A DNA stretch of 64,000 bases from Pirellulales bacterium (GTDB lineage Bacteria > Planctomycetota > Planctomycetia > Pirellulales > PALSA-1355), in the NCBI GenBank assembly GCA_963733035.1, contig CAVTBU010000006.1:448001-512000 (forward strand), given 5' to 3'. The notes under the pieces were generated by a model. It was not told the DNA's origin. It was given only the letters and a program-made list of their open reading frames with translations, and ran no database searches. This document shows positions 2,744-19,126 of the stretch, in pieces. The position numbers were made by a program, and so were the translations under genes. Each line of letters opens with the position of its first letter. Positions within the stretch are counted from its first letter, which is position 1.

Positions 2744-3313
2744 ATGCAGCCCAGTCCAAGATTCTCCGCAGCGCTCGCCTACGCCTCCGAACTGCACGCC
2801 CGTCAACGGCGAAAACGGACAGAAGTTCCCTACGTGGCCCACCTGTTGGCCGTCACGTCCATCGTGCTGGAGCACGGCGGTAGTGAAGACGAAGCGATCG
2901 CCGCCCTGTTACACGACGCGGTGGAAGATCAGGGAGGCGCGCCGCGGCTAGCGGAGATCCGCCAGCGGTTTGGTGCGGCGGTCGCCGACATCGTCGACGG
3001 CTGCACCGATGCCGATATCACCCCCAAGCCGCCCTGGCGCGAGCGCAAGGACAAATACCTCGCGCATCTGCCCACCGCCAGCCGTTCCGTACAGCTCGTT
3101 TCGGCAGCCGATAAGTTGCACAACGTTCGATCGCTTTGCGAGGACTATCGCGTCAGCGGCGAAGACGTATGGCAGCGTTTCAATGGCGGCCGGGAGGGAA
3201 CGCTGTGGTACTACCGCGCCGTGCTCCAGCGTCTCGACAAGCTCGAGGGCACACCGCTAATCGCGCAGTTGACCCGCGCCATCGAAGAAATCGAGCGGTT
3301 GTCCGGGCGTTAA
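2744..3313 (+). CDS. Stand-alone HD hydrolase (Mesh1/SpoT hydrolase-like)
   Basis: H-x-x-Q-x-RK...PYVAH, AALLHDAVED, ADKLHN. Confidence 0.85.
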   Translation: MQPSPRFSAALAYASELHARQRRKRTEVPYVAHLLAVTSIVLEHGGSEDEAIAALLHDAVEDQGGAPRLAEIRQRFGAAVADIVDGCTDADITPKPPWRERKDKYLAHLPTASRSVQLVSAADKLHNVRSLCEDYRVSGEDVWQRFNGGREGTLWYYRAVLQRLDKLEGTPLIAQLTRAIEEIERLSGR

Positions 3314-3338
3314 TTCCGTCGGGCATCCATACACGCGC

Positions 3339-3368
3339 TTGAAATCGGGCCAGCCCTAGTGCTAGTTT
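3339..3368 (+). promoter_or_regulatory. Putative promoter P1 (TTGAAA-N18-TAGTTT, extended TG)
   Basis: ttgaaatcgggccagc is identical to 11771-11786; TGcTAGTTT lies at 3360-3368, just upstream of the RNA leader. Confidence 0.6.
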
Positions 3369-3384
3369 GCCTTTTGTTGATGAC

Positions 3385-3462
3385 GGGTATCGGCAGAGCC
3401 TGAGCGCGACTCAGGTATCCCAAGGGCCCCTTGCTGGTTTTTTTCCAGCAGGGGCCTTTTTT
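3385..3462 (+). ncRNA. Structured leader/attenuator copy 1 (bulged hairpin, second hairpin, intrinsic terminator)
   Basis: GGGTATC-ggca-GAGCC; CCTGAG-cgcga-CTCAGG; GGCCCC(T)TGCTGG-t7-CCAGCAGGGGCC-TTTTTT, ending just before ATG 3475. Homologous to 12040-12119. Confidence 0.7.
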
Positions 3463-3474
3463 ATTGGGGCAGGC

Positions 3475-4053
3475 ATGATGGCAAGTTCAGATTTGAGATG
3501 CGTCTCCTATCACGATGTGCGCAATCAGATTTGCGACGGCGACCTGCTGTTGTATCGCCGCCGGGGACTGATTTCGATCGCCGGACGCGGCGACCACTCG
3601 CACGCCGCCAAGGCCGCCTGGTGGCGAGACGATCTTTTTTGTCTGGAAGTCCGCGAACTGCACGGAGGACGGGCCGTCACCCTCTCCAGCCAGGTGAGCC
3701 GATTCCCAGGGCACATCGACGTCTACGAAGTGAATCCCGACAACCGCTGGCCGTATTACGATCGCACGGCCGCTTGTGCCGTGATGCGGCGGCTGGCCGG
3801 CTGCCCGTACGGATATGCCGGCGTCGCCGCGGCGGCACTATTGCACTTGCCAGTCGTGCGGCTATTCACCCAGGCCGACGTGCATGATGCCGCGGCATCG
3901 GGCCGCCCTCCGTTTTGCAGCCAGGCATGCGCGATGAGCGACCGCATCGGTGGCGGCGTGGACCCGGTGCCTCACCTGGCGGACCGTCTGACATTGCCGG
4001 CCGATCTGGCACGTAGCCCTTTCTATCGTTACCGCTTTACCCTCACGGCTTGA
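3475..4053 (+). CDS. Permuted papain-like NlpC/P60 enzyme (YaeF/YiiX, C92-like amidase)
   Basis: GDLLL...ISIAGRG.HSHAA (His before Cys), GCPYGY, FCSQ and PADL. Confidence 0.75.
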   Translation: MMASSDLRCVSYHDVRNQICDGDLLLYRRRGLISIAGRGDHSHAAKAAWWRDDLFCLEVRELHGGRAVTLSSQVSRFPGHIDVYEVNPDNRWPYYDRTAACAVMRRLAGCPYGYAGVAAAALLHLPVVRLFTQADVHDAAASGRPPFCSQACAMSDRIGGGVDPVPHLADRLTLPADLARSPFYRYRFTLTA

Positions 4054-4056
4054 TCC

Positions 4057-5313
4057 ATGCGACAAATCTCTTTGCTTTTGATCGCTTTGTGCGCGCTCGC
4101 GTTGGTTGATGGAACGTCGGGACAGGCGCGGGCAGTGGATTGCCCGACAGGCAGTTGTCCACTGCAGCCACCGTCTTCGCCAGCTGAAGTCGCCGTCGAC
4201 GCGCGGCCCATTGCACGGATTGAAAACACAACGCCTGCCGCCCGTGCGTATGGTACGGGAACGCTCGTCGACGTCGACGACGACCGAGGACTCGTCGTAA
4301 CCTGCGCTCATCTGTTTCGCGAAGGGGTGGGGACGGTGCGCGTCAGCTTTCCGAACCGCCCGGCGCAAACCGCCCGCGTGTTAAAGGCCGATCACAATGC
4401 CGACCTGGCAGCGCTCGCGATTCCGCCGTTGGAACTCCGGCCAGTGGAAGTTGCCCAGCAGTTCCCGCAGCGCGGCGACATGCTCGTTTCCTGCGGTTAT
4501 GGCGGTGATGGACGGCTGTGGTCTAACCGTGGGCAGGCGCTCGGGTATGTGACCACCGTCGGCAGTTACGGTCGCGAAACGTTGGAGCTGAGCGGCAGTG
4601 CTCGCTTGGGCGATTCGGGTGGTCCGGTGCTCGACGGCAATGGTTACCTGGTGGCCGTGTTGTTTGGAACTGATGGCCGCGTCGTGGATGCCACGTTTTG
4701 CGGCCGCGTGCGAAAGTTCCTCGCCGGCCTCTCGCCTCGATTCGGGCAAGCTCCCAACAGCGATGCGTCGGCATCGAACGACGAGCCTCGCGAAAAACTG
4801 GAAGACGTGCCACCCCGGATTCTGCGGCCGCAACGTTCCCCGCGCGAACAGAATCCAGCCGACGCCGACCCGCTGGCCAAAGCGGCAGACGCGGTAACCG
4901 ACGCCGCCGCGCCCTGGCTCACGGCGAAACTCACGGGGCTGCTCGTGTCTCTGGGAGTTCCCGGCGGAATCGCGGGCGTCGCCGGCGGAGGGCTCGTGTG
5001 GCTGGTCATGCGGCGCGGCAAGAAGCAACTACGAGCGGAAATCGATCGACTCAAAGCTCGCGCCGAGCAGGTACCACCGAACAGCCCGGCCAGCGATTCG
5101 ACTGGCGTACTTGCGTCGAGCACGGCCGGGAGCGTCGTTGAGCGACATCACAACCGTTATGTGGCGTACGAAGCCGGCTCGGTCGACAAGGCCTGGGCGG
5201 CTGCGCACGCCCGGGTCGGCGAGAAGTATCCCGGCGCCGTCCCGTATTTGAAGATCGTCGAAGGGGTCAAAGACCAACTTCTTTCGGGCATCGAAGAACC
5301 ACTTATTTCCTAA
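4057..5313 (+). CDS. Exported trypsin-like (S1) serine protease with C-terminal hydrophobic anchor
   Basis: Signal peptide, GTGTLV, VVTCAHL (His), DLAAL (Asp), GDSGGP (Ser); hydrophobic GVPGGIAGVAGGGLVWLVMRR segment. Confidence 0.85.
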   Translation: MRQISLLLIALCALALVDGTSGQARAVDCPTGSCPLQPPSSPAEVAVDARPIARIENTTPAARAYGTGTLVDVDDDRGLVVTCAHLFREGVGTVRVSFPNRPAQTARVLKADHNADLAALAIPPLELRPVEVAQQFPQRGDMLVSCGYGGDGRLWSNRGQALGYVTTVGSYGRETLELSGSARLGDSGGPVLDGNGYLVAVLFGTDGRVVDATFCGRVRKFLAGLSPRFGQAPNSDASASNDEPREKLEDVPPRILRPQRSPREQNPADADPLAKAADAVTDAAAPWLTAKLTGLLVSLGVPGGIAGVAGGGLVWLVMRRGKKQLRAEIDRLKARAEQVPPNSPASDSTGVLASSTAGSVVERHHNRYVAYEAGSVDKAWAAAHARVGEKYPGAVPYLKIVEGVKDQLLSGIEEPLIS

Positions 5314-5328
5314 AGGAGAAGTTTACAC

Positions 5329-6189
5329 ATGAGCACCACGCAGCCGATGTTCACCACCGATGAAATCCTTTGGTACGACAACGGGAAATGGGGCGAAGCC
5401 GGATACGCTATCGCCAACCCCAACGGGAAGATATGGACCGCGAATAGCGTAATTTTTCAATTTCACAGCCTGGTTGGCCGCAACATGTTCGAGTTGATGC
5501 ACCGCACCGACGTGCGGTTCTACGGTCCGCCGCACAAACAGTTCTGGTACGACCTGCACCAGCTCATCGTCACCGCCCGCAAGCGGCTGGCCGATCGCCA
5601 GCGGTTGCCGAACGACTCGAACGGGCTGGTCGTCGAACATGCCTCGCCGGCTCCACAGGTATTCATCGCCTGGCCGATTCCGTTCTTCGGCGATCGTGTT
5701 CGCCAGCCCGACATCCGGGAGTACGCCCAGCTCGCGCTGTTGATGCTCTCGGAGATGATGCAGCACAGCGAGAACGAGCTGCCCACGTATATCACCGACA
5801 GTTTCGCGGCCAAGATCGGTCAGTATCTTCGCGAAATTCTGGCGCTCATGGCCACCAAGTACTTCGGCTACACGCGCACCCAGGCCTACGACCCGGCATT
5901 CGCGCTGCAGGACACGGATTTCGCGAACTACGATCCCTCGAAGGTGATGACCAGCGTTGAGATGACCGAGGAGCGTCCGCCAGTGCAGTGGTGGCCGACC
6001 GAATCCGACCTGACGGCGATTCGGGCGATTCCCTACAACGAGGCGATCGTGCTTTCCAAGCGCTGGCCAGCCACGGCTTTGTTGGGTAGCGAAACGTTCG
6101 CGCCTGCGACGTCGAGCGCCGCGGCAACTTCGCCCGGAACCGCGCCGGCCAGCGCCGCCTTCGTCGCTCCGCCCGGACAGGCTCCGTGA
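5329..6189 (+). CDS. Hypothetical protein (286 aa) of the phage-like cluster
   Basis: Strong RBS (aaggag) before the ATG, strongly GC3-biased codons, operonic position; no motif recognised. Confidence 0.8.
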   Translation: MSTTQPMFTTDEILWYDNGKWGEAGYAIANPNGKIWTANSVIFQFHSLVGRNMFELMHRTDVRFYGPPHKQFWYDLHQLIVTARKRLADRQRLPNDSNGLVVEHASPAPQVFIAWPIPFFGDRVRQPDIREYAQLALLMLSEMMQHSENELPTYITDSFAAKIGQYLREILALMATKYFGYTRTQAYDPAFALQDTDFANYDPSKVMTSVEMTEERPPVQWWPTESDLTAIRAIPYNEAIVLSKRWPATALLGSETFAPATSSAAATSPGTAPASAAFVAPPGQAP

Positions 6190-6220
6190 TCATCATTTTC
6201 GTCGAGGAGAATCAGCAGCC

Positions 6221-6472
6221 ATGGCTTTTCCGGAGTGGAGTTTCATTGTGGGGGCGGCGCTTTCGGTTGCCCTCACGGCAGGACCTTGGATGTTCAAAGT
6301 GCATGCCAAGCTGGCAGTGATCGCCAGCAAGATCATCGACCTGTGCGAGAAGCTCGACCGCACGCAAGACGAGCATCGTCGACTGTGGGAAGTCTGCAGT
6401 CGCCACGAGTCGCGGCTCGACACGCACGACGTGCAGCTCTCGCACATCGCCGAGAGGCTGCGCGGCGACTGA
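6221..6472 (+). CDS. Small single-TM plus coiled-coil protein (holin/XhlA-like)
   Basis: gaggag RBS; N-terminal TM helix followed by heptad-like RLDTHDVQLSHI. Confidence 0.55.
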   Translation: MAFPEWSFIVGAALSVALTAGPWMFKVHAKLAVIASKIIDLCEKLDRTQDEHRRLWEVCSRHESRLDTHDVQLSHIAERLRGD

Positions 6473-6505
6473 TATCGCGCCAGGTACCAACCACTGGAGT
6501 TTCTC

Positions 6506-7063
6506 ATGCAAATTCGCGATCGAATTCGAGAGTTTCGTCGAGTGCGCGCCGATACGTTACGTCCGCACCCGCGCAATTGGCGCACGCATCCCCGCGCACA
6601 GCAGGAAGCTGTGCGCGGCGTACTGGCCGAGATCGGCTATGCCGACGCCCTCTTAGCCCGCGAACTGCCGGATGGCTCGCTGCAACTCATCGACGGCCAC
6701 CTGCGCGCAGAACTTACTCCCGACGCGTTGGTGCCGGTGTTGGTGCTGGACGTCAATGAAGACGAGGCGCTGAAGCTGCTGGTTACGGTTGACCCGCTGG
6801 CTGCCCAGGCCGAAACGGATGCTGCCATGCTGCGGGGACTGTTGGACGAAGTGCATACCGACAACCAGGCCGTGGCCGCGCTGCTCGCGTCGCTGGCCGA
6901 AGGAAATCCGCTGGACGGAACACTCGATGATCCCGCGCCCGAAGACCTCATCGTGCCGGCCAGCTTTCAGGTCGTCGTGCAGTGCACAGACGAGGATGAG
7001 CAACGCGAGGTCTACGAACGGATGAGGTCTGAGGGGTTCAAGTGTCGCGTTCTTTCATTGTGA
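6506..7063 (+). CDS. Phage-type ParB/Srx N-terminal domain protein
   Basis: LRPHPRNWRTH, IGYADALL and LIDGHLR motifs. Confidence 0.8.
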   Translation: MQIRDRIREFRRVRADTLRPHPRNWRTHPRAQQEAVRGVLAEIGYADALLARELPDGSLQLIDGHLRAELTPDALVPVLVLDVNEDEALKLLVTVDPLAAQAETDAAMLRGLLDEVHTDNQAVAALLASLAEGNPLDGTLDDPAPEDLIVPASFQVVVQCTDEDEQREVYERMRSEGFKCRVLSL

Positions 7064-7070
7064 GTCAGAC

Positions 7071-8178
7071 ATGCCTGTAGTCGAAGCAACCGTTAGTTGT
7101 CCGCTGTACGATTCGTTTCGCGTACAGCAGGTGGCGGGCATGTTCGACGTGCCGCTCGAAGAGCGACCGGCGCAGTCGTTTGCCGTGGACGTGCCCGATG
7201 TGGACGAAGACTGGCAAATCGGTTTGATTGTCGGTCCCTCGGGAAGCGGCAAAACGACGATCGCCCGGCGCGCGCTTGGCAAGTACCTGTGCGATGAACC
7301 CCAATGGCCGACGAACCGGGCCGTCGTCGACTGCTTCGGGCGCTCACGGCGAAGCAAATCACCGGGCTATTGACGGCGGTTGGATTCGGCTCTCCGCCGG
7401 CCTGGGTGCGGCCCTACCGGGTACTCAGCCGCGGAGAACAATTCCGCTGCGACCTGGCACGCGCACTCGGCGTTGCCATGGAGCAAGGCGCTCGCAAACC
7501 GCAGCGCTTCCGCCGCTGGTCGTCTTCGATGAATTCACTAGCGTGGTCGATCGCAATGTCGCGCAAATCGGTTCGGCCGCGATTGCGAAGTCGATTCGCG
7601 GAGGCCGCCTTCCCGGCCGTTTCGTGGCGGTCACCTGTCACTACGACGTCGCCAACTGGCTCGAGCCCGACTGGGTGGTCGACATGGCAACGCGCACCTG
7701 CTCGCGGAGGCGTCTTCGGCGACCGCCCATTGAACTTGAGCTGCACCGCTGCCATCGGCACCTCTGGACGTTGTTTGCGCCGCATCACTATTTGAGCGGA
7801 GCTCTCAGTCCGGGGGCGCATTGCTATGCGGCCTGGTGGCAGGGGCGGCCAGTCTCGTTTTGCGCCACGCTGCCCGTCATCGGCCGCAGAAATCATTGGA
7901 GAATCTCGCGCATCGTGACGCTGCCCGACTATCAGGGCGTGGGCATCGGCATGCAGGTGGCCGAGGCGGTGTGCCAGCTCTATCGCGCGGCTGGCTGCCG
8001 CATGAACGTGACGGCCAGCCACCCGGCCATGATCGCCCATTGCACGCGCTCGCCGCGATGGCGCACCGTGCGCGTGCTGCGCTCGGGTGCCGGCGAAACG
8101 CGACATTTTGTGCGCAGCTACCGTAGTTCGGCAGGGCGGAGCGTGGTGTCCTTCGAGTATCTGGGAAATCGACCGTGA
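7071..8178 (+). CDS. ABC-type ATPase fused to GNAT acetyltransferase (two -1 frameshifts, ~7340 and ~7500)
   Basis: GPSGSGKT in the 7071 ORF, LSRGEQFRCDLAR in the 7304 ORF, then FDEFTSVVDR, HHYL and SRIVTLPDYQGVGIG in the 7228 ORF. Confidence 0.82.
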
Positions 8179-8648
8179 GCGAGCGCAACGAACCGGGCCG
8201 GCCGCCGGTCCTCGACGACGTCAAGAAGGGCATGATTTGCGCCGTGCTGGCGATGGGAGGCACGCGTGTCACGGCCGCGGCCTACGTCGGCTGCCATCCC
8301 GACACGATTCGCAAGACCGAGCTGCGCGACGAGGAATTCGCCCAGAACCTCGAACAGGCAGAGTCAAAGCACGAGGTGTCGCAACTTGCCTATATCAGCA
8401 GCGCCGGCAAGGAAAGCCGACACTGGCGAGCCGCGGCCTGGGCGCTGGAGCGACGCTATCCCGGCCGCTATGGCCAACGACGCCCGGAGTTATTTACGCT
8501 CGACCAGGTATCTCACGTGGTGACCCAATTCGCCAGCGTGATTCTCGATGAAGTGACCGACAGCGTGCAGCGCGAACGTATCCTGGCGCGGCTGACCGTC
8601 TTGTCGGCCAGCCTGCAATCCACGGCCCTCGCGGGAGACAATTCATGA
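8175..8648 (+). CDS. Terminase small subunit-like HTH protein
   Basis: GRPPVLD N-terminus, HTH, WRAAAWALERRYP; overlaps the TerL start. Confidence 0.65.
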   Translation: MSERNEPGRPPVLDDVKKGMICAVLAMGGTRVTAAAYVGCHPDTIRKTELRDEEFAQNLEQAESKHEVSQLAYISSAGKESRHWRAAAWALERRYPGRYGQRRPELFTLDQVSHVVTQFASVILDEVTDSVQRERILARLTVLSASLQSTALAGDNS

Positions 8649-10255
8649 AACTCACCGCCACTTGGAATCGCGAAGGCATTCGCACCGATGCCTGGGCCGA
8701 ACTTGCCTTGCATCTCAGGGCTTGCGTGGCTCGCCGCGTGCGCTGTGAGGGGCGCGACAACCTGCCGCTGCTCGACTGGGGCCGCCGCTACCTGCCGCAC
8801 TATTTCCAAAAGCCCCCCTCGGGCATGCACCAATGGCTGGCCGAACGGCTGGATACGATGACCACCGAGCGCGGCACGAAGCTCAATGCCATTGGGCCGC
8901 GCGGTGGTGCCAAAAGCACGATCGGCACGTTGACCTACGCCCTCCGTGCGGCCGTCGAAGGCTGGGAGCCCTACATTTGGATCGTCTCCGATACCAAACA
9001 GCAAGCGCGCGGACATCTGGAGAACCTCAAGCTCGAACTGACGACCAATAAACTGCTCGCCGACGACTATCCCGCGTCCACCGGCAAGGGTTCCACCTGG
9101 CGCGTCAACGTGGTTCGCCTGAACAACGGGGTCACGATCGAAGCCTTGGGCACGGGCCAGCGTCTGCGCGGAAAACGAAGCGGTGCCAATCGTCCGACGC
9201 TTATCGTGTGCGATGACTTGCAGAATGACGATCACATGCGCTCGGCTATGGCACGCGAGAACTCGTTGCGGTGGTTCGAAGGCGCGTTGCTCAAGTCTGG
9301 CACGCCGCAGACGAACGTCGTCAACCTGGCCACGGCACTCCACCGCGATGCCCTGGCGCTCAAGCTCGATCGCACGCCCGGTTGGACATCGCAAGTGTTC
9401 CAGGCAATCCGCCGCTGGCCCGACAACATGAGCCTGTGGCATGAGTGGGAGCGGATCTACTGCAATCTGGAAGGTGGAGATTCGCCAGCCGCCGCGCGTG
9501 CGTTCTACGAGCGCAACCGCACGGCCATGGACGAGGGGGCCGAATTGTTGTGGCCCGAACTCGAAGACCTCTACACGCTGATGCGGATGCGGGTGGAAGG
9601 TGGACGTACCGCGTTCGAGCGCGAGAAGCAGGGTTCACCACTCAGTCCCGACGCCTGCGAGTGGCCGGCCGACTACTTCGACGAGCACGTGTGGTTCGAC
9701 CGGTGGCCCAGCGACTTGAGGCTCAAAGTCATGGCGCTCGACCCGAGCAAGGGGCGCGACTCCCGGCGGGGCGACTACTCGGCCTTCGTGCTGCTGGGCG
9801 TGGACCGCGACGGGGTGCTCTACGTCGACGCGGACCTCGCGCGACGCCCGACGCCCGAGATGGTGGCCACCGGCGTCGAACTCTGCCGGGTATTTCGTCC
9901 GGACGCGTTTGGCGTCGAGACTAATCAGTTCCAGGAATTGTTGTCCGACGAGTTCGCCGCGGAGTTTCAGCGACAGGAAATGGTCGACGTGCATCCCTGG
10001 GGCATCGACAACCGGGTGAACAAGCCCGTGCGGATCCGGCGGCTTGGCCCCTTTCTCTCGAGTCGCAGGCTGCGATTCAAGAGCGACTCACCGGGTACGC
10101 GACTGCTGCTCGAACAGCTGCAGGAATTTCCGGCCGCCGATCATGACGACGGACCCGACGCGCTGGAGATGGCAATCCGACTGGCGGGAGAACTCCTGGG
10201 CGGTACGGCAGTGGGCGACAGCCTGGGCGATCGGATACCCGTGGGGGCGGGGTAG
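8645..10255 (+). CDS. terL: Terminase large subunit
   Basis: Walker A PRGGAKST, LRG..GANRP, Walker B IVCDD; RNase H-like LDPS..DYSA..HDDGPDALE; intact 536 aa. Confidence 0.92.
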   Translation: MKLTATWNREGIRTDAWAELALHLRACVARRVRCEGRDNLPLLDWGRRYLPHYFQKPPSGMHQWLAERLDTMTTERGTKLNAIGPRGGAKSTIGTLTYALRAAVEGWEPYIWIVSDTKQQARGHLENLKLELTTNKLLADDYPASTGKGSTWRVNVVRLNNGVTIEALGTGQRLRGKRSGANRPTLIVCDDLQNDDHMRSAMARENSLRWFEGALLKSGTPQTNVVNLATALHRDALALKLDRTPGWTSQVFQAIRRWPDNMSLWHEWERIYCNLEGGDSPAAARAFYERNRTAMDEGAELLWPELEDLYTLMRMRVEGGRTAFEREKQGSPLSPDACEWPADYFDEHVWFDRWPSDLRLKVMALDPSKGRDSRRGDYSAFVLLGVDRDGVLYVDADLARRPTPEMVATGVELCRVFRPDAFGVETNQFQELLSDEFAAEFQRQEMVDVHPWGIDNRVNKPVRIRRLGPFLSSRRLRFKSDSPGTRLLLEQLQEFPAADHDDGPDALEMAIRLAGELLGGTAVGDSLGDRIPVGAG

Positions 10256-10333
10256 GGGGATGGCAAAAGTCAGAGGGATGAAGGAGGAGAGATACGGAAT
10301 TACTCGCCTTGAAGTCAAGATCATGAGGAGTTT

Positions 10334-11811
10334 GTGATGAGTAGCAACGGCGTAGTGGAACGTGACGTATCCGAGCGGTTGAACCGTCGATTGGCCGAGG
10401 CCTGGCAAAGTCTGTGGGATAACTTTGTCGATCCGCGAGAGTCGCTCTCTGATGATGGCGGCGATTGGATCGAGCTGGGAGCCGGTGGCGGAGCGACCAC
10501 GGCATCGTTGCCCTTCGGCAATGAGCAGGAGCTTCGTGAGATCCGCACGCAGTGCCGGGCTCTTGCGGTCGGAAACGAGTTCGCGATCAACGGACACGAG
10601 AACCGCATCAGCTTTCTGGTAGGCGCGGGACATACGTATCGCGCTGCTGTGAAGAAGGGGCGGGCGGCTTCCGACGAGTTGGCGAGCCGCGTGCAGGAGG
10701 TGTTGGATCGGTTCATTGCCGAAAACCGGTGGCACCGCCGCCAGCAGGAGATTGTCCGCCGCTACGATCGCGACGGAGAAGTGTTTCTACGTCTGTTCGC
10801 CACGGACGATGGCCAGACGCGTGTTCGTTTCGTCGAGCCTGGGCAGGTGGCCACGCCCAAGGAACTGGTAGGCGACGCGTCTGCGAGCTTCGGCATTCAA
10901 ACTGAGCCCGATGACGTGGAGACGCCCCTGTACTACTACATCGACGGCCGGCCGGTCGACGCTGCCGACGTGCAGCATCGCAAGGCAAACGCCGACGCGA
11001 ACGTCAAACGCGGGTTGCCCCTGTTCTATCCCGTGCGAAAGAACTTGCGACGCGCCGAGAAGCTGCTGCGCAACATGAGCGTCGTGGCAGAGATTCAGTC
11101 GGCGATCGCGTTGGTCAGAAAACATCGCGGCGCAACGCGTGCCAGCGTGCAGCAGTTCGCTTCGTCACAGGCCGACGTCAGCGTCACGTCGCCGGCGACC
11201 GGCCAGACGACCAACTATCGCCGGTTCGGACCGGGCACCATTCTCGACAGCCACGGTGGAATCGAATACGACTTTCCGACCGCGGGGCTCGACGCCGGCA
11301 ACTTCGTGACGATCTTGCAGGCCGAGCTCGCGCGATTGCCAGCCGACTGGTGATGCCTGAGTTCATGCTTACGTCGGATGCTTCGAACTCCAACTATGCT
11401 TCGACGATGGTGGCCGAGGGGCCGGCGATGCGGATGTTTGCCCGCTCGCAGGCCGAACTGGTGCACGACGACTTGTGCGTGATGCACCGCGTGCTGGAGA
11501 ACGCCGTGATCGCCGGTCTGTTGCCGCGTGAAGCGCTGACGCAAATCGAAATTCAGGCCGCACCGCCAACGCTGGCCGTTCGCGACCCGCTAGAAGAAGC
11601 GCAGGCGTTTCGCATCGAGTTCGAATCCGGCATTCTCTCGCCGCAAACTTGGAGCCAGCGGCGAGGCCTGGACTACGACCAGGAACAGACCAACTGGCGG
11701 CAAGCAAGGGACCGCGCCGCGCATGCTCCCGCGCCGCGAAAAAAAATTCCGCGACCGGCGAAAATGGAAATTGAAATCGGGCCAGCACTCCGGGTAACTT
11801 CGGAATCATGA
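10334..11811 (+). CDS. Portal protein (-1 frameshift ~11330; true C-terminus uncertain)
   Basis: Follows TerL; RDGEVFLR, RGLP, then DASNSNYAS and DPLEEA..GILSPQT in the next frame, typical of portal proteins. Confidence 0.85.
11771..11800 (+). promoter_or_regulatory. Putative promoter P2 (TTGAAA-N18-TAACTT) with upstream A-tracts; probably leaderless
   Basis: 16-bp identity with P1; the -10 ends at 11800 and the ATG is at 11808; no Shine-Dalgarno. Confidence 0.6.
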
Positions 11812-11990
11812 CAAGCAAACGGCATTCATCCGCAAACCAAACCAAAGTCGCCCGCGTGCGAGCCGCCTGTGACCAGCTGCTCGACGAAGTGCTGCGGGAA
11901 GGTTTTCACGGGGCTGCCAAAGTGGAGCTGATCATCGCCGACGGCACGATCCAGCGGATCAGCCGCACGGTGGAACGAATCGACAAGTAG
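11808..11990 (+). CDS. 60-aa small protein, YezD/DUF2292-like (candidate antiterminator)
   Basis: Helix-GFHG-strand-DG-strand pattern (EGFHGAAKVELIIADGTIQRISRTVE) resembles DUF2292 by eye; lies directly upstream of RNA leader copy 2. Confidence 0.6.
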   Translation: MTSKRHSSANQTKVARVRAACDQLLDEVLREGFHGAAKVELIIADGTIQRISRTVERIDK

Positions 11991-12039
11991 CACGAGCGGA
12001 ACGGGGGAGCGTGGAAACGCTGCCGGCCATTCGTGCGAA

Positions 12040-12119
12040 GGGTATCTCGACGAGCCTGCCAGGGGCGGGTTTCATTGCGGGCCCATTTGCCGGTGCATCC
12101 GGCAGATGGGCCTTTTTTT
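12040..12119 (+). ncRNA. Structured leader/attenuator copy 2
   Basis: GGGTATC-tcgac-GAGCC; CCTGCC-agg-GGCGGG; GGCCCATTTGCCGG-tgcat-CCGGCAGATGGGCC-T7, upstream of ATG 12142. Confidence 0.7.
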
Positions 12120-12141
12120 GTCTGACAAGGAAACCAAAACG

Positions 12142-13091
12142 ATGGACGAAAACTTGCAAGAGTTCGTAAGTTCGCGGGGCGTCGCGGTGCGGGTCGATCG
12201 CAACCTGGGTGTCATTCGCGGCGTCAAGTTACTGGGGCTCGAATCGCGCAACGGACGCCGCTATCTACCCGCCGCGCTGGCCCAGGCGGCTGCGCTCTAC
12301 GAGGGAGCCAAGGTCAACGTCAACCATCCCAAGGGAAGCCCGTTGGCGGCCCGCGACTATCAGGACCGGCTCGGGTCGATTCGCAGCGTGCGCAGTGCCG
12401 CCGACGGCCTGTTTGGCGACTTGCATTTCAATCCGAAACACGCCCTGGCCGAGCAGCTTGCCTGGGATGCCGAACAGCGCCGGAGAATGTCGGCTTTTCG
12501 CATAACGTCGAAGCCCGCACCGTGCGTCAGGATGGCCGCACGATCGTCGAGGCGATCCTGAAGGTGCAAAGCGTCGATCTGGTGGCCGATCCGGCGACGA
12601 CACACGGTTTGTACGAGGGTCTTGCGCCCGGCGAGGGGGCTTCGACACCGATCACGCTCTCAACAGCAACGCTGGAAGTGCTGCGCGCCGCTCGGCCCGA
12701 CCTGGTCGACGCCGTGCGCGCCGAAACGGCCGCCGAGCTGGTCAGCCTTCGCGAGCACGTCGTTCGCTTGCAGGGCGAAATCGAAGTTCGCCGGCGGCGC
12801 GAAACGGCGCAATCGTTGTTGCGGGAGTACCGACTTCCGGATCCCTCCCTGGCCGAGGCCGCCGCGCGACCGTTGGTCAGCGAGCAGTTCCTGGAAACCG
12901 TGCTGGCTGCGGCCGACGAATCGGCCATGCGACGGTTGGTCGAAGAGCGCGCCCAGCTAATCGCCGCGGCGCGGCTGTGCGAAGGCGAATCGTATCGCGG
13001 CGGCACGCGACCCGTTTCGCGCGAACAGCAGTGGAGCGAGCCGCGCACGCCAGCGCTCGATGCCCGTAGCTTCGCCCGCGCGATTTCCTGA
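12142..13091 (+). CDS. Prohead protease/scaffold (-1 frameshift ~12475)
   Basis: S.NGRRY, VNVNHP, GFSHN(V), SVDLVADPATT.GL; helical scaffold-like C-terminus. Confidence 0.8.
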
Positions 13092-13150
13092 CGCAATTGT
13101 CCAATCAAAATTCCACCTACTCACACGTTTACTCAACGGAGAATCCACAA

Positions 13151-13627
13151 ATGGCCAACACGATGCGCTGGAGATACGGAGAAACCAATCCGGTTGTGCT
13201 GCCAATCGCCGCGGCGACGGTAATTGAGATCGGCGACCTGGTGTACTTGGATACGACGGCCAAGCCGGCCGGCGACCTTCCTTACGGGGCGAGCCTGGCC
13301 GCGACCCAGGAATCGTTCCACGACACGTTCGTGGGCGTGGCGATGCAGCAGTCGCGCACCGGCGATACCGCCGAGATCCGCGTGGCGACGACCGGCGTGT
13401 TTGAGTTTGTCTGTGCGTCGGCCACGTTCGAAGTTGGCGCCCGCATCGGAGCCGACGACAACGCCGGCGCCAGCGCGCTGGTCAACCAACAGGTGATCGC
13501 CGTCAACACGGCCAATCCCGAGCTGTCGATCGGCTACTGCGCCAAGCGCGTCAACCCGGCCGCCACTTCGGTGCTGGTCGACATCGTCGGCACGCTCACT
13601 CACGCCGGACCGCAGGCTGTCGCTTGA
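13151..13627 (+). CDS. Capsid decoration/cement protein
   Basis: IEIGDLV, FVGVA and IRVATTGVFEF pattern; located between the protease and MCP. Confidence 0.65.
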   Translation: MANTMRWRYGETNPVVLPIAAATVIEIGDLVYLDTTAKPAGDLPYGASLAATQESFHDTFVGVAMQQSRTGDTAEIRVATTGVFEFVCASATFEVGARIGADDNAGASALVNQQVIAVNTANPELSIGYCAKRVNPAATSVLVDIVGTLTHAGPQAVA

Positions 13628-13688
13628 GGCGAGGCCGAGGCCGGACAATTTCGGAACGATCTTTCACTCTAGGCAGGAGATACACGAC

Positions 13689-14850
13689 GTGATCAAGATT
13701 AGCGAACTCAAACGCCGCTACGAACTTGACGGTCCGCGGCAGACGATCGCCCACCTGACCGAAGCGCTGCAGCAAGGCCATCTGCGGGCGGAAGATTTCA
13801 GCATTCGCGATCTGGCCGAAGGCCTGGTACCCGACGGCCACGAGTGGGTACGGCTGATGGACCCGCGCAGCGGCGGCAGCGTGCGGTGCTTGAAGCCGGC
13901 GAGGGCGTCGATGCGACGGCCTTTTTGAACATCACCGGCCAGGTCATTTATCAAAGATCATGGAGGCCTACACGCAGGAAGCGTTCGTCGTCTCGAGGCT
14001 GGTCGACACGATTCCGACGCGCTCGACGGCGAGAAGATTCCTGGGCATTGCCGGCCTGACCGACGGAGGACCACGAGATTCGCCCGGGCATGCCGTATCC
14101 GAGCTCGGCTTCGGCGAGGACTACATCGAAACGCCCTCGACCACCAAGCGCGGGTTCATCGTGCCGGTGACGAAGGAGGCGATCTTCTTCGATCGCACGC
14201 ACCTGGTGCTCAGCCGCGCGGCCGAGGTGGGCGAGATGCTGGGCTTGAACAAGGAGAAGCGATTGATCGACCTGGTGATCGGGGCGACGAACAACTACAA
14301 GTGGAACGGCACGACCTACAACACCTACCAGGCCGGCGACGCGCCGTGGATCAACGTCAACGACCGGCAACGAGCTGGTCGACTGGACCAACGTCGACGC
14401 GGCCGAGCAGCTGTTCGCCGACATCCTCGATCCCAACACGGGCGAGCCGGTGCTGGTCACAGGCCACCACGGTGCTGGTCATGCCGGCCTATCGTCACGC
14501 GGCCCATGCGCGTGTTCAACGCGCTGGAAGTTCGCTTCAATCCGGCGCCTCCGACACCACGACCGCTGGCGGCCAATCCGCTGGTCGAACTACCAGGTGG
14601 ACGAAAGCCGGCTGGCGTACGCCGCGTCATGGCCTCCGGCGCGGCGGCCGACGACGCCAAGAAGTGGTGGTTCATGGGCGATTTCCAGAAGGCGTTCGCC
14701 TACATGGAGAACTGGCCGATCACCGTCACGCAATCGCCGCAGGGCAGCGAGGCCGACTTCAACCAGGACATCGTCGTGCGGTTCAAGGCCAGCGAGCGCG
14801 GAGCGGCCGCCGTGCTCAATCCGCGTTACGTCGTCAAGTGCACGGGCTAG
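13689..14850 (+). CDS. Major capsid protein (several frameshifts)
   Basis: aggag RBS; pieces in three frames join into one protein (F.NITGQ.., KRG.I..VTKEAI..D, VLVMP, WFMGDFQKAFAYMENWP..RFKASERG...PRYVVK); canonical position. Confidence 0.8.
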
Positions 14851-14860
14851 CGACGCGCGG

Positions 14861-14919
14861 GGCGGGCACCGGGGTGCGGCGGGCGGCCAAACACAAGCCG
14901 CCCGCGACCCCGGTTCGTC
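14861..14919 (+). terminator. Long GC hairpin after the capsid gene (terminator or mRNA stabiliser)
   Basis: accggggt..gcgggcggc-caaacacaa-gccgcccgc..accccggt; no clear U-tract. Confidence 0.55.
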
Positions 14920-14958
14920 TGAAATGGACAAGGCGCCTCTTGGGAAAGGACAACTCGC

Positions 14959-15174
14959 ATGAGCAACGCAGAGCAGATCGAAACGATCAAAGCCAACACA
15001 CTCGCGCAGATGGCGGCCGTGTCGGCCGAACGTAAACCGAGCTACACCGAGAACGGTCAGACGTTTGCCTGGACCGAATATCTCGAACACTTGCAGCGTC
15101 GCGTCGACTGGTGCAACCAGCAACTCGCCGCCGAAGAGCCATTTGAAATTCCCACACAAGGATACACGCCATGA
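14959..15174 (+). CDS. Head completion/adaptor protein (gpW-like)
   Basis: 71 aa helix-hairpin-helix with SYTENGQTFAW, immediately after the MCP. Confidence 0.6.
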   Translation: MSNAEQIETIKANTLAQMAAVSAERKPSYTENGQTFAWTEYLEHLQRRVDWCNQQLAAEEPFEIPTQGYTP

Positions 15175-15488
15175 ACTTCGTTCCCGATCTCGTGGACGAT
15201 TGTCTGCTGGTTGACGGCACCGAAACGGTCACCTTGCATTCGAGCAGCACCGTGACAGTGGAAGGGGCCAAACGGGGGCTACTTACCCTGGCCGAAATGG
15301 AGTTTCGCCAGGTCGGTCTGGAATCGACCGATCTGGCCTGGAACCTTCCCGCAATAAACCTGGGCAACATTAATCCACGCCAGGGCGACACGATCGAGGA
15401 CTCCACTGGCGTGAATTGGACAATCCTCGGCGCAACGCACACGCCGCTCACCGGTGTTTGGCGGGTCGTGACGCGCAGGCAGCTGTAA
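15171..15488 (+). CDS. Head-tail joining (head closure) protein
   Basis: 105-aa beta-rich protein with PRQGDTI..G.NWTI; coupled by an ATGA overlap. Confidence 0.6.
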   Translation: MNFVPDLVDDCLLVDGTETVTLHSSSTVTVEGAKRGLLTLAEMEFRQVGLESTDLAWNLPAINLGNINPRQGDTIEDSTGVNWTILGATHTPLTGVWRVVTRRQL

Positions 15489-15569
15489 GGCCCTCGGGTC
15501 CGTCATCGTGAACGTCCACGTTGTTCGTTCCTTCCAACGGATGCGCGGTACATGCCGCGCGATACAAGC

Positions 15570-16084
15570 ATGATCACTATCACAGCAGCCACGCTCGGCG
15601 ACAGTTCGACAATCGCGGCTCTATGGAATGTCAAACGGCTGGACGCCGCCTCGTGTTGGTTTGGCGCCGAGGAAATCGACGACAATTACATTGCGAAGTT
15701 GTTGTCGTCCGGCATGACCCTCGCGTTGCGCGAGTTGATGGCTTGCCTGTCGGGTTTGGCCTCTGGTGTCCATCTGGAAACGAAGCCCGGCTCGTGGCCC
15801 TCGCCGCGGACGACGAGGAAGTGTACTACCGGCTGATGGCCGAGTACTGCCAGTGGGGAACTGCCTCGAATCGACCGACGGGCTTTGCCGAGTTGGGAAC
15901 CGCGGCCACGACCGAGCGCGCACGAATGGATGCCCTTGGCGTGATCACGTACACCGCGATTGGCTTCGAGCCGCTCTTGCCCGGACAAGCGGCCGACCAA
16001 CGGGTTCCGCAACTACTGCGTGCCGAATGCGATCTGACGCTGCTCACCGCGGCTGTCGGTAGTCGGTTGGAGGACCTGTCGTGA
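15570..16084 (+). CDS. GNAT-fold-like protein (-1 frameshift ~15730)
   Basis: ITAATLGD..IAALWN, then DGLPVGFGLW..ARLVAL in the next frame. Confidence 0.45.
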
Positions 16085-17394
16085 GCCAACAACTCGTCCT
16101 GCAACCGGACTCCGCAGCCGGTGTTGACGTCCATATCAGCAGTGGTTCGAACGCAACCGTCAACCTCGGGGGGGCGTCCGTTGCGATCATCGGCACCTCC
16201 CAGGCATCGAAGGCGCTCGCCTTTTACCGACTCCTCTTGCGGTTCGACCTCGCTGCGTTTCCTCCGGGCGCGGTCGTAACCGGCGCGACATTGACGCTCA
16301 CCTCGGCCGCGTCGCTCAATGCGGTTGGGCTCACGTTCTATGCCTATCGTTTGACACAGGATGATTGGACCGAGTTTGGGGCTACCTGGAATGTTTACGA
16401 CGGGGTGCACGCTTGGCAGAACGCAGGTGGCGACGTCACGACGGTGGGAGCCGCTTCGGAAAACCTATCCGCTGGCGACGCCGATCTGGTGTTTGCATCC
16501 TTGGCGGTGCTGGTTGCTGACGCGGTTTCGAATCGGAACGGGGTGCTCGATTTGATGGTGGTGGGTCCCGAAACGAGCGAGTCGAGCTATCTGGCAGTTT
16601 CCACTTCGGACGAGTCCTTGGCCGATCGCCGTCCCAAGTTGACCATCACGTACGCCGCCCCTCCCGGCCTGAGCATCGAAGATCACAGTGACGCCTCGGG
16701 GGCCACGGCCACGATTGTTGCCGTGGATCCGGAGGCCACGACAACGGTACTGGTTCTCGCGTTTGAGGGCGATTTGGGAACCGGAGCGTGGAGCGTCGCC
16801 GGTTCCGTCGAGGGAAACGGCGAGGTGCTGCTGACCCTCTCCCCCGGGCACTACTTTGCTTACGCCGTTTCGAGCATTGGCAGTGTGCGGGTGCCGTCGC
16901 CTGTCGTGTACTTCGTCGTCACCGATGGACTCGAGTCCATCCACACGCGCTGTCTGGCGGCCGTGCAAGCCCGCATACGACTCTTGGGATTGGCGGGTAT
17001 CGACAGCGAGCACGTGCTGATCGAAAAAGTTCCGGCCGGGCGTAATCTGTCGACCGCCATTGGGCTGCCCGCCATCGTGCTCTCTCCGGAACGGGCGGCC
17101 ATGCCGGCCGCCGAGGGAACCAACGGTGCAGACGACGTCCACTACGGCGTGCTGGTGTCGATCTTTGATCGCGACAACCAGGAGCCCTCGCTTGGGGCGA
17201 ACCTCGACCGTCACCTGTTGTGGCGGCAGCAAATCGCCCGGGCATTTCGAAATCAGCGGCTACCGGGTGTGCCGGAAGTCATCAACTCGGAAGTCGAGCC
17301 GGCCGAGGGACTGCTCGACGAGGCGTGGAAACGCGAACTGATGACCACCGCCATGCGGTTGCGGTTTACCAGTCGCGAATCGCGGGGATTTTAA
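16081..17394 (+). CDS. DNRLRE/CBM96-like domain fused to a tail-completion-like C-terminal domain
   Basis: D.HIS..N.G, LLRFDL..P.GA.VT.ATLTL, W.E..ATWN, RPKLTITY; C-terminus LPAIVLSP..YGVLVSI..RQQIARAF directly before the tail tube gene. Confidence 0.65.
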   Translation: MSQQLVLQPDSAAGVDVHISSGSNATVNLGGASVAIIGTSQASKALAFYRLLLRFDLAAFPPGAVVTGATLTLTSAASLNAVGLTFYAYRLTQDDWTEFGATWNVYDGVHAWQNAGGDVTTVGAASENLSAGDADLVFASLAVLVADAVSNRNGVLDLMVVGPETSESSYLAVSTSDESLADRRPKLTITYAAPPGLSIEDHSDASGATATIVAVDPEATTTVLVLAFEGDLGTGAWSVAGSVEGNGEVLLTLSPGHYFAYAVSSIGSVRVPSPVVYFVVTDGLESIHTRCLAAVQARIRLLGLAGIDSEHVLIEKVPAGRNLSTAIGLPAIVLSPERAAMPAAEGTNGADDVHYGVLVSIFDRDNQEPSLGANLDRHLLWRQQIARAFRNQRLPGVPEVINSEVEPAEGLLDEAWKRELMTTAMRLRFTSRESRGF

Positions 17395-17413
17395 ATAGGA
17401 GACAAACCAAACC

Positions 17414-18334
17414 ATGGCACCGACTACGGCCTCGATGGGCTATCAGGCCCGACTGGGCACCAAAAACGAAGCCACTTACGGCACGGCCGTCGCCGTGGAC
17501 GAAGCATTCGTATTTACCAGCGAAAATATTGTCAAGCATGGCGTGATTGTCGAGCGAACGGGACTGCGCGGTACCGCAGCCACCAAGCCGACGATGCTCG
17601 CATCGGACCCTACACGGTGGGCGGCCGGCTGGTGCTGGAGCCCACACCCCAAGACCTTTCCGTTTGGCTGCCACGGATCCTTGGCGCCGCGCCCGACGGT
17701 GCGGACTTCAACCTGGCCGAAACGCTGCCGAGCTTCACGCTCACGATCGATCGCGTGGCCAAGGTGTTCACCTATGCCGGTTGCAAGGTGAATCGCGCCA
17801 CGTTTTCCGGTTCGCAAGGCGGCCTGCTGCAATTGTCTCTCGACATCGTGGCCAAGTCTGAAGTTGTGGCGGCGGCCGGCACGTTCCCATCGCTTTCAAC
17901 GAGCGTCGCCCAACCGTACATCTTTTCCGACCTCGATCTCACATTGGCCTCCACCGCGCGGGAAGTGAAGGAGTTCGAGTTGTCGATCGACAACGGACTG
18001 ATTACCGATCGGTTCATGAACTCGGTGACGATCGTCAGCGCTCCCGAGGGGGACCGCAGCATCATGCTTCGTACGACGCACGCCTGGGCGGCGAGCAACA
18101 CCGATTTGTATGCCCAGGCATTGGCCGGTGCTCCGGGCACGTTGCAACTGACCAACGCGTTGGGCGCGCACCGCCGGCCGGCTATCAGACGACGTTTAGT
18201 TTTGCCACGCTGCAGGTACCCGATCGCAGCCCGAACGTGCCGGGCCGTAACGAGCTGTATCTAAACCTGGAAATGGCCCGCGCCGGATGGGGGCCTCGCC
18301 CGAGCTTTCCGTCACCCACGACGCCACGCCGTAG
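17414..18334 (+). CDS. Tail tube (major tail) protein (frameshifts ~17575, ~18170, ~18280)
   Basis: G..A.LG...E.TYGT N-terminus, LPSFTLTIDR, YAGCKVN, FELSIDNGL; ends ELSVTHDATP*. Confidence 0.72.
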
Positions 18335-18358
18335 TTCTCCCTTCAAGACGGATGAATC

Positions 18359-19087
18359 ATGTATCTCAAATATGGAACGTACCAGCATCCGCCGGGCGAA
18401 GCGTCGGTGGTGATTTCCAAACAGGGGCTGTTCAGCGACGCGGGCCTGCCGCAGGGCGTCCGCGAGCGATGGGACATACAAGGGCGCTTGCAAGCAGCGG
18501 ATCAAACGGCGCTCTCGGCCGCGATCGATGCCCTCACTTCGGCCTACGCTATACAGGGGCAGGACCTCGGCTTCTACTTCGACGACGGACAGCCCTCGAG
18601 CCATCAGATCACCGGCTCTTCGACCAACGGCGGAGTGCGTGTTGTCATGCCGCCGAGCTTTCCGCAAGGGAAGGGAGCCGAGTACTCGACTTTTCGCAAC
18701 TACGCGATCTCGCTGGAAGCCGAACTGCTGGACAGCGGTGCCACGCTCATCCAGTGGAACGAGCGGCTCAACTTCTCGGGAGGCGGCCCCCAGTTTGCCT
18801 TCCTGCAACCGATTAACGGGTTGCCAATCAAACAATTGCTCCGGCAGGCCACTCCGTATCACGCTGCGCAAAGCGGCGAAGCCGTCGGCTATCAGGCCTA
18901 TCCCACACCAGCGCTGCCACTGTGGCCCGACGCCGAACACGTGAACCAACGCGAGGTTCACTACGAGCTTCCCAAACGTATGGGACCACCCGGTAGCGCC
19001 ACCTACACACACTATCGGGTCACCTGGGCCTATCGCTTCGAGTCGGCCACGCCGCTGGTCGGAGCGCCGACCGGCTGGCCGTCGTGA
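18359..19087 (+). CDS. Hypothetical tail/baseplate-region protein
   Basis: Intact 242-aa beta-rich ORF in the operon after the tail tube gene. Confidence 0.65.
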   Translation: MYLKYGTYQHPPGEASVVISKQGLFSDAGLPQGVRERWDIQGRLQAADQTALSAAIDALTSAYAIQGQDLGFYFDDGQPSSHQITGSSTNGGVRVVMPPSFPQGKGAEYSTFRNYAISLEAELLDSGATLIQWNERLNFSGGGPQFAFLQPINGLPIKQLLRQATPYHAAQSGEAVGYQAYPTPALPLWPDAEHVNQREVHYELPKRMGPPGSATYTHYRVTWAYRFESATPLVGAPTGWPS

Positions 19088-19126
19088 TGACTAACACATC
19101 AACTTCATAGGTAATTCAACCGACAC

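Follow-up and report, generated by a model that had tools for sequence, protein, structure and literature searches.

Phage antitermination systems such as lambda N/nut, HK022 put and Q/qut modify RNA polymerase to pass many terminators, and their sites lie outside the terminator. In Bacillus subtilis, hutP lies between a promoter and a regulated terminator. For riboswitches, a closing helix that shares its 3' strand with the terminator is the standard expression platform, and in the RNA targets of ANTAR proteins loop positions 1 and 4 are a conserved A and G. These ANTAR targets (EutV, AmiR, NasR) are presented, in the available part of PMC3369931, as tandem repeated units of which the second shares nucleotides with the terminator, and in the available part of a preprint (10.1101/2020.09.27.315978) as dual hexaloop motifs. 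The ribonucleic antiterminator (RAT), target of the CAT domain of BglG, SacY and LicT, is described in the available part of PMC5393181 as an imperfect hairpin whose 3' strand overlaps a terminator; the more stable terminator wins unless a protein dimer clamps the hairpin. Here we report two leader RNAs, each ahead of an operon of phage-like structural genes, in a 64,000-nt stretch of the genome of a bacterium of the order Pirellulales (GenBank assembly GCA_963733035.1, contig CAVTBU010000006.1, positions 448,001 to 512,000; hereafter the window). They are real, homologous and widespread examples of a previously undescribed RNA, probably of the attenuator type, and their action is most likely a local antitermination that resembles the RAT and ANTAR systems in logic and belongs to neither.

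A first-pass annotation of the window had pointed to two elements of ~80 nt that share one architecture, and both are present where it placed them (Table 1). Each leader can be divided into s1 (GGUAUC), s2 (GAGCC), s3 (GGUAUC-like), s4 (GAGCC or GGGCC) and s5, the 3' strand of the terminator. Segments s1 and s2 make up a first GGUAUC...GAGCC unit; s3 and s4 make up a second unit, overlooked by the first-pass annotation in both leaders, whose 3' arm is the base of the terminator. The pattern GGTATC-N3-7-GAGCC has two matches in the window compared with a mean of 0.08 in shuffles, and 1 of 100 shuffles reaches two. Both leaders fold much better than shuffled sequences (z = -3.5 and -3.8), and none of 200 shuffles equals them. 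Among the terminator-like sites of window positions 3000-22900 their terminators rank first and second, with 15 and 10 stem pairs compared with 5-8 pairs for each of the remaining 23 sites, and both have the form of an intrinsic terminator, a GC-rich hairpin followed directly by a U-tract (T7 and T6). The U-tract lies 12-22 nt before the first ATG at both operons, as had been noted.

The Rfam search that the first-pass annotation had suggested matched no family. There were no matches to Rfam 15 in the whole window at gathering thresholds, and in E-value mode both leaders gave chance-level matches, the best of which scored 17.4 bits (threshold 70) and 19.4 bits (threshold 74), both to eukaryotic families. 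One planctomycete motif was met in the literature searched, Rhodopirellula-1 (Weinberg et al. 2010), a candidate cis-regulatory RNA for which the table of that paper gives no Rfam accession. It differs from the leader: its alignment (AACAA..GAUGAAC...GUUAUC..ACGUU), annotated there as overlapping a transposase-linked motif, is unrelated in sequence and layout. No account of the leader, or of antitermination or an element resembling a gene transfer agent in Planctomycetota, came up among the papers listed in searches of the openly accessible literature.

Related loci were collected by a search for TerL, with one genome per species, which returned 71 loci, almost all from Pirellulales. Cultured species that carry the element include Adhaeretor mobilis HG15A2 (L030) and Bythopirellula polymerisocia Pla144 (L034). 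A pattern scan of these loci found the motif on the gene strand only, and a simple parse recovered 35 leaders in which a hairpin and a T-run come after two GGUAUC..GAGCC units. Based on a covariance model (R1), there are 52 sites with E <= 1 in the 71 TerL-bearing loci, the window and L080, and 51 of them are on the gene (plus) strand. The sole minus-strand match sits between inverted copies of s60, a small open reading frame (ORF), and h1, the first gene after leader 2; thus, all 52 are co-oriented with their genes. Across the 6.6-Mb genome from which the window comes (60% G+C, 92% complete; G000), R1 finds only four sites with E < 1e-7, and the next match has E = 0.08. A fifth site, which has a long apical insert, was found by eye. 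A loose two-unit regular expression was not discriminating over the whole genome (63 matches, compared with 62 in a reversed control). In searches of whole genomes the motif is present in 30 of the 33 genomes of the family, including 16 of 16 high-quality ones, and, using a model designated R2, in 58 of 151 sampled genomes of the order. More than 100 natural leader variants were collected in this way, and 110 distinct leaders were compared. A pattern scan of IMG/VR gave 116 stretches; among the 80 scored, three are true leaders, and all three belong to this same cluster.

The pairing of the segments was evaluated using two alignments, A4 (52 rows), which was fitted to a structure with s1:s2 and s3:s4 hairpins, and A5 (71 rows), which overlaps A4 in species. 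In A4, s2:s3 and the inner linker stem are 97.4% paired, with double compensatory changes at 7 of 8 modelled pairs (61 cells), a result matched by none of 500 shuffles. This covariation appears although the alignment was fitted to the rival structure, and A5 repeats it, with double changes at 6 of 8 s2:s3 pairs. Examples include AAGCC with GGUAUU, GAGCU with AGUAUC, GAGUC with GAUAUC and GAGUU with AAUAUC, and leaders missed by the model supply GAGCG..CGUAUC, GAGUU..AAUAUC and GAAGC..GCAUUC. The covariation establishes that s2 pairs with s3 in a long hairpin from which the A is bulged. The covariance model of homologous clusters that the first-pass annotation had proposed thus bears out its claim of a functional, conserved and structured RNA. 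Of the two hairpins that it drew, the second is real, and is longer than described, running through GAGCC and GGUAUC. The first, between GGUAUC and GAGCC of unit 1, did not hold up: it has no covariation and is absent from all 49 folds described below, and the compensation for changes in its arm lies in unit 2.

Pairing within the units is nonetheless possible in most rows. In A4, s1:s2 is 98.1% paired and s3:s4 about 95%, with one-sided changes only in both; in A5 the values are 99.4% and 95.3%. The mismatches in s1:s2 and s3:s4 fall exactly where s2 and s3 covary. The outer segments can also pair with each other: s1:s4 is paired in 259 of 260 cells in A4 and in 340 of 340 in A5, where there is one double change, from U-A to C-G in L107. 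Among the 110 distinct leaders, s2 and s3 vary together and s1 and s4 are nearly invariant (s1 is GGUAUC in 100, the bulged A is present in 109, and s4 is GAGCC or GGGCC in 108). Pairing of s1 with s4 and of s2 with s3 would be expected to produce such a pattern. A variant in L049 has an s1, GGUAUU, that fits its s4, GAAGCC, and not its s2. The parts outside the helices are variable. Loop 1 is 4 or 5 nt long in 107 of the 110 leaders and loop 2 in 100, with no conserved positions; the internal loops vary in sequence and in length, from 4 to 7 nt; the s3 bulge may be A, U or G; and the spacing between the repeat units ranges from 6 to ~50 nt.

A hairpin and T-tract with s4 at the base is present in 49 of the 52 aligned leaders, the exceptions being L080, which has a poor U-tract, L037, where the locus ends, and L031. 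These 49 leaders were folded. When the RNA is cut after s4, the minimum-free-energy fold contains at least 4 of 5 s1:s4 pairs in 33 of 49 leaders, and s1:s2 or s3:s4 hairpins in none. The full-length minimum consists of s2:s3 and the terminator (mean -43.2 kcal/mol). Forcing s1:s4 with s2:s3 gives a mean of -32.1 kcal/mol, and forcing s1:s2 with s3:s4 gives -23.2 kcal/mol, so that the terminator state is predicted to be ~11 kcal/mol more stable than the s1:s4 state. The terminated fold is therefore the thermodynamic default in these models, which agrees with the first-pass proposal that transcription stops by default; default termination would in turn require some form of antitermination for read-through. 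An attenuator should have an alternative helix that shares nucleotides with the terminator and forms first, and the s1:s4 helix is pairable, is predicted in those 33 truncated RNAs and has one double compensatory change. Together with its conservation and the L049 variant, this makes s1:s4 the candidate switch helix.

The model that we favor, with moderate confidence, is a cis-acting transcription attenuator at the 5' end of each transcription unit, in which an antiterminator hairpin made of s1:s4 and s2:s3 would oppose the terminator, and read-through would depend on a factor that acts locally. In this mechanism s2 and s3 would always pair around a variable apical stem, forming the long hairpin, and s4 could complete either of two structures. 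With s1 it would close a long, roughly two-fold symmetric hairpin, the antiterminator, consisting of the basal helix s1:s4, which has a U.G pair as well as the bulged A, and the upper helix s2:s3, with an internal loop (4-5 nt on each side) between the two. With s5 it would complete the GC-rich intrinsic terminator, which is followed by 6-7 U. The antiterminator would form first in the nascent RNA, and the emerging s5 would then displace s1 because the terminator is ~11 kcal/mol more stable, releasing a short leader RNA (~85 nt for leader 1). Read-through would occur when a trans-acting factor clamps the sequence-conserved basal helix. The most likely factor is a protein that binds RNA and has its gene elsewhere than in the particle cluster; a small ligand is the less likely alternative. 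Local rather than processive action is suggested because each terminator has its own overlapping element and there are no other strong terminators inside the operons.

Several observations weigh against this model. The s1:s4 helix is almost without covariation because both of its strands are invariant, and s1:s2, which is also 98-99% pairable, may form transiently. Among the truncated folds, 16 of 49 lack at least 4 of 5 s1:s4 pairs, including that of leader 1 of the window (3 of 5 pairs), and the C5 toxin leaders introduced below have a poor U-tract. Both alignments were fitted by covariance models and have species in common, and related genomes do not count as independent samples. Promoter, RNA ends and termination are all predicted from sequence. 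Searches for known antiterminator proteins were negative: CAT_RBD (PF03123) was not found in G000, with the control search matching 4 of 14 genomes; and the HutP domain (PF09021) was not found in the genome, and its control search did match. For ANTAR (PF03861) the lack of a match in the genome carries no weight, as the control also matched none of 14 genomes.

Among the described systems, RAT as presented in the available part of PMC5393181 has the same layout as the leader, a single imperfect hairpin with a variable apex, two similar stem modules and an overlap with the terminator, and an unrelated sequence. The leader hairpin is longer, 45-60 nt compared with ~29 nt, and the overlap is shorter, ~5 nt compared with 8. 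Each module of the leader is a helix of 5 bp that includes a U.G pair and a bulged A; those of RAT are internal loops. The absence of a detected CAT_RBD in G000, the different phylum and the different regulated genes further separate the two.

The same switch could also be operated by a small molecule, for example a signalling nucleotide, that stabilizes the basal helix. The architecture fits the standard riboswitch expression platform, the RNA has pseudo-two-fold symmetry, the element is present in genomes in which no particle cluster was found, and neither of the RNA-binding antiterminator families searched (CAT_RBD and HutP) was found in the genome. A ligand pocket would be expected to show as conserved unpaired positions; instead, the internal loops are unconserved and vary from 4 to 7 nt, as does the s3 bulge between A, U and G, and conservation lies in helical positions, which is more typical of protein recognition. 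We consider a riboswitch unlikely.

A dual-hairpin arrangement, which would extend the first hairpin of the first-pass annotation, would have two separate small hairpins, s1:s2 and s3:s4, that a dimeric protein binds in the manner of ANTAR systems and of which the second sequesters the base of the terminator. In its favor, both hairpins can be drawn in nearly all leaders at the pairing levels given above. Tandem units with the second overlapping the terminator are also the ANTAR layout in the available part of PMC3369931, and a small regulon of several leaders per genome is a further likeness. The same ANTAR sources, so far as available, describe two separate hexaloop hairpins. In the leaders the units pair with each other through s2:s3, the loops are 4-5 nt and unconserved, s2 covaries with s3 and not with s1, and the outer s3:s4 pair breaks in 8 of 52 rows of A4 and 13 of 68 of A5. 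The two hairpins appear in none of the 49 folds, and the forced state lies ~20 kcal/mol above the minimum and ~9 kcal/mol above the s1:s4 state. This arrangement seems quite improbable.

It is also conceivable that there is no regulated switch, and that the elements are constitutive terminators or insulators, or genes for a stable RNA of ~85 nt, with downstream expression from other starts or from leak. The strongly favored terminated fold and the lack of a factor found so far are compatible with this. It leaves unexplained an s1 that is near-invariant (100 of 110) and always pairable with s4, and the presence of the same module before unrelated toxin cassettes. In the window, moreover, genes start 12-22 nt after the U-tract, without room for another promoter. 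We regard the absence of a switch as decidedly improbable.

The first-pass annotation had raised a nut- or put-like mechanism, in which RNA polymerase, once the leader had supplied it with a factor or had acted on it directly, would resist this terminator and later ones, as in nut, put or Q systems. The operons are long and phage-derived, a terminator shortly after a late-type promoter recalls nut/put/qut, such systems are known from phages, and processive antitermination reportedly also operates in the Caulobacter gene transfer agent (GafYZ). The comparison fails in that every transcription unit, and every toxin cassette of 1-3 genes, has a copy of its own that overlaps its own terminator, with the conserved s4 forming part of the stem. 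Positions 3000-22900 hold no other strong terminators inside the operons, and no Rfam antitermination RNA matched, which makes this reading very unlikely. A purely DNA-level role, in which the direct repeats GGTATC-N4-5-GAGCC are operators for a DNA-binding regulator, is scarcely tenable: two direct repeats do lie near a conserved promoter of a type shared with a gene for a helix-turn-helix (HTH) and phage zinc-finger protein, yet the arms covary as base pairs (GAGUU/AAUAUC, AAGCC/GGUAUU), losing repeat identity and keeping RNA pairing, the repeat spacing runs from 6 to ~50 nt, and strand specificity is strict (51 of 52 matches, the exception being co-oriented with its genes).

Attenuation by the leader would be the second of two layers of control, the first being a dedicated promoter. 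A box with the consensus TTGAAA-N3-GGCCA-N10-TAnnnT precedes both units of the window, and its conservation suggests a dedicated promoter (P1 and P2 in Table 1). Leader 1 begins ~10 nt after the transcript start predicted from P1, and a P1-type motif lies ~40-45 nt upstream of leader 1 in related loci. In those loci the strict pattern has 14 forward matches, at the expected places, and no reverse matches. In the genome of the window there are six matches compared with three in a reversed control, and three of the six precede leaders or s60. A looser pattern occurs within 90 nt upstream of 15 of 28 s60 genes, compared with 11 of 2000 random windows. A reading of GG-N10-GC in the two leaders as a sigma-54 promoter was rejected: the spacing differs by 1 nt between them, and the rest of the consensus does not fit. 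Attenuation by a leader peptide was rejected too: a short ORF (ATG at 3381) covers s1 in leader 1, but other leaders either lack it or have it in different frames.

Table 1 Features of the two leaders, their predicted promoters and the adjacent genes (window positions)
Feature	Position	Strand	Description
Promoter P1 (predicted)	3339..3368	+	TTGAAA 3339-3344, TCG, GGCCA, TAGTTT 3363-3368; predicted leader RNA start ~3375
Leader 1 s1	3385-3391	+	GGGUAUC; 5' strand of proposed basal (switch) helix
Leader 1 s2	3396-3400	+	GAGCC, after loop GGCA; 3' arm of unit 1
Leader 1 long hairpin	3396..3419	+	s2 3396-3400, variable apical stem-loop 3401-3413, s3 GGUAUC 3414-3419
Leader 1 CCTGAG/CTCAGG hairpin	across 3399-3415	+	
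Leader 1 second unit	3414-3428	+	GGTATC-CCAA-GGGCC; 3' arm s4 GGGCC 3424-3428 is the 5' base of the terminator
Leader 1 terminator stem	3424-3456	+	followed by T6/U6 at 3457-3462; ATG at 3475, 12 nt past the T-tract
g1, first gene of unit 1	3475..4053	+	192 aa, without Pfam family
Promoter P2 (predicted)	11771..11800	+	TTGAAATCGGGCCAG...TAACTT; first 15 bases identical to P1; ends 7 nt before the ATG of s60
s60	11808..11990	+	conserved 60-aa ORF between P2 and leader 2
Leader 2	12040..12119	+	includes a CCTGCC/GGCGGG hairpin; best covariance-model match in the genome, E = 1.6e-10
Leader 2 first unit	12040-12056	+	s1 GGGTATC 12040-12046, loop TCGAC 12047-12051, s2 GAGCC 12052-12056
Leader 2 apical stem	12057-12067	+	between s2 and s3
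Leader 2 second unit	12068-12083	+	GGTTTC-ATTGC-GGGCC; s3 GGUUUC 12068-12073, loop 12074-12078, s4 GGGCC 12079-12083
Leader 2 terminator stem	12079-12112	+	followed by T7/U7 at 12113-12119; ATG at 12142, 22 nt past the T-tract
h1, first gene of unit 2	12142..12561	+	follows leader 2

Unit 2 has the order P2, s60, leader 2, head genes, which explains why s60 accompanies leader 2 in every case, inverted modules included. There are 28 homologues of s60 in 28 loci. In related loci it sits between the portal gene and leader 2, and its C-terminus is visible in 18 of the 29 rows for which the distance from stop codon to leader was taken. The AlphaFold model of the protein is one helix and a beta hairpin (predicted local distance difference test, pLDDT, 90.5). 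Searches of Pfam, NCBIfam and PDB gave no match; there is no paralogue in the genome, and a protein atlas gave a weak lead to DUF2292 (score 0.78) and phage proteins. With its ATG 7 nt after the predicted -10 box, the s60 mRNA may be leaderless. As a small ORF between promoter and terminator, s60 recalls the position of hutP. It differs in lacking a HutP domain, and no such ORF stands at leader 1 or at the toxin leaders. Its position made s60 an attractive antiterminator, but we rejected it as such: it was not found in G017, G001, G027 and G067, and three of these (G017, G001 and G067) carry leaders.

The first-pass annotation had the RNA gating particle production. The leader does head both particle operons; this description is too narrow, as the leader also precedes toxin cassettes and persists where no capsid genes were found. 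The extra leaders in the genome of the window (C5:1083220, plus strand; C5:2648303, minus strand; and C6:~237.9 kb, the site found by eye) precede polymorphic toxin cassettes. Two of them lie in a 2-kb duplication that is 98.7% identical, and each of these precedes an acidic protein and then a protein of ~500 aa. In the copy scanned against Pfam, Tox-REase-5 makes up the end of the ~500-aa protein, and an Imm52 protein comes next. A further 20 sites outside the cluster were taken from seven other genomes (loci L112-L131). Downstream of 7 of the 20 there is a Pfam toxin or immunity domain, namely Tox-REase-5, AHH with Imm11, Imm1 (two sites) and LRR (two sites, one with a DMP19-like domain), and most other ORFs at the 20 sites match no family. 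At one site (L128) a g1-like ORF follows, as at leader 1. Many of the leader-linked toxins share an N-terminal motif, PSEAWLFAQ..LG.PIP, and the toxin-type leaders have an extra covarying hairpin before s1. The same two-layer module of promoter and leader would thus drive both particle operons and several polymorphic toxin/immunity cassettes.

Three leader-bearing genomes are informative with regard to the factor. In G017 (96% complete), G001 (99%) and G067 (91%), neither the major capsid protein nor s60 was found, nor was a close TerL: G067 had no match, and those in G017 (E = 3e-7) and G001 (E = 2e-10) were weak. A g1 homologue nevertheless follows a leader in both G017 and G001. Since leaders occur in genomes in which no capsid gene was found, any trans-acting factor is probably encoded outside the capsid cluster.

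One protein was considered for this role. It combines an HTH and a phage zinc finger (P0004; weak Pfam matches), has an arginine-rich C-terminal helix, and is encoded in the genome of the window at C5:1733202-1733627 (L158, 503-931). An acidic ORF of 65-74 aa precedes the gene, which often adjoins the cluster; in L016 and L019, two loci without leaders, g1 comes immediately after it. The protein is present in 101 of 151 genomes of the order. As a partner specific to the leader it was rejected: 48 of 93 genomes without the motif have it, as do 53 of 58 genomes with the motif. A promoter of the regulon type precedes the gene in 8 of 13 loci examined, and we regard the protein as a candidate master regulator at the promoter level. 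Separately, a match to the promoter pattern precedes an 80-aa ORF, an extracytoplasmic function (ECF) sigma factor and a likely anti-sigma factor at C7:192865-194368 of the same genome (L157), a lead only, possibly to the same circuit.

The two leaders belong to a phage-like structural cluster that spans ~3.4 to 27 kb of the window (3400-27250) in two operons of 8.5 kb and >15 kb, both phage-derived. In unit 1, g1 is followed by genes for a trypsin-like peptidase, a ParB-like protein, a P-loop/GNAT protein, TerS, TerL and the portal. In unit 2, h1 is followed by h2, a decoration protein, the major capsid protein, the tail tube and further tail genes; h1 and h2 are head-module proteins of unknown kind. 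No integrase, repressor or replication genes were seen among the ORFs scanned in the first 42 kb of the window. The cluster is syntenic in many Pirellulales species (loci L009-L068), and in many of them leader 1, at its left flank, is bordered by the same host genes (MoCF-domain, Exo_endo_phos and sometimes HD_4). A relative of TerL (E <= 1e-30) is present in 110 of 151 sampled genomes of the order, mostly as one match each. Because TerL is widespread and mostly single, the flanking host genes are shared, and the IMG/VR leaders all come from this same cluster, it looks like a domesticated, vertically inherited, gene-transfer-agent-like element rather than a mobile prophage.

Some further features of the cluster and its relatives were recorded. 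The P-loop/GNAT gene (phrog_11143) runs over two frames that overlap (7071-7373 and 7228-8178), perhaps through a frameshift, whether programmed or a defect. The portal homologue (10334-11811) reads as two ORFs with a 4-nt overlap (10334-11353 and 11350-11811), and its parts were also matched separately in related loci. The distal end of the cluster carries two genes for family-2 glycosyltransferases, and a TfoX_N-domain gene comes just past it (23496-26338 and 28116-28571). A second, partial TerL-like stretch occurs elsewhere in the genome (C4:34355-35299; 55% identity over residues 296-519). In loci L055-L064, from metagenome-assembled genomes of gut Thermoguttaceae, and in L016 and L019, the clusters are without both leaders and without s60.

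The regulon described here ties a phage-like particle to polymorphic toxin/immunity cassettes, and their co-regulation raises the question of whether the toxins are cargo of the particle. We can envisage, as a speculation with a small chance of being correct, that the leader is a signal-gated antiterminator of a new class (a riboswitch for a small signalling molecule, or the target of a new family of RNA-binding proteins) and together with the promoter forms an order-wide switch that fires the particle and the polymorphic nuclease toxins together, with the particle perhaps delivering the toxins or being released alongside them. Regulation in Planctomycetota is almost unexplored, and the leader, at 45-60 nt plus a terminator, offers a compact and testable switch. 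The leader RNA can also be used as a genomic marker for such cassettes. The identity of the factor that binds the basal helix would reveal the signal that commits these bacteria to particle and toxin production.

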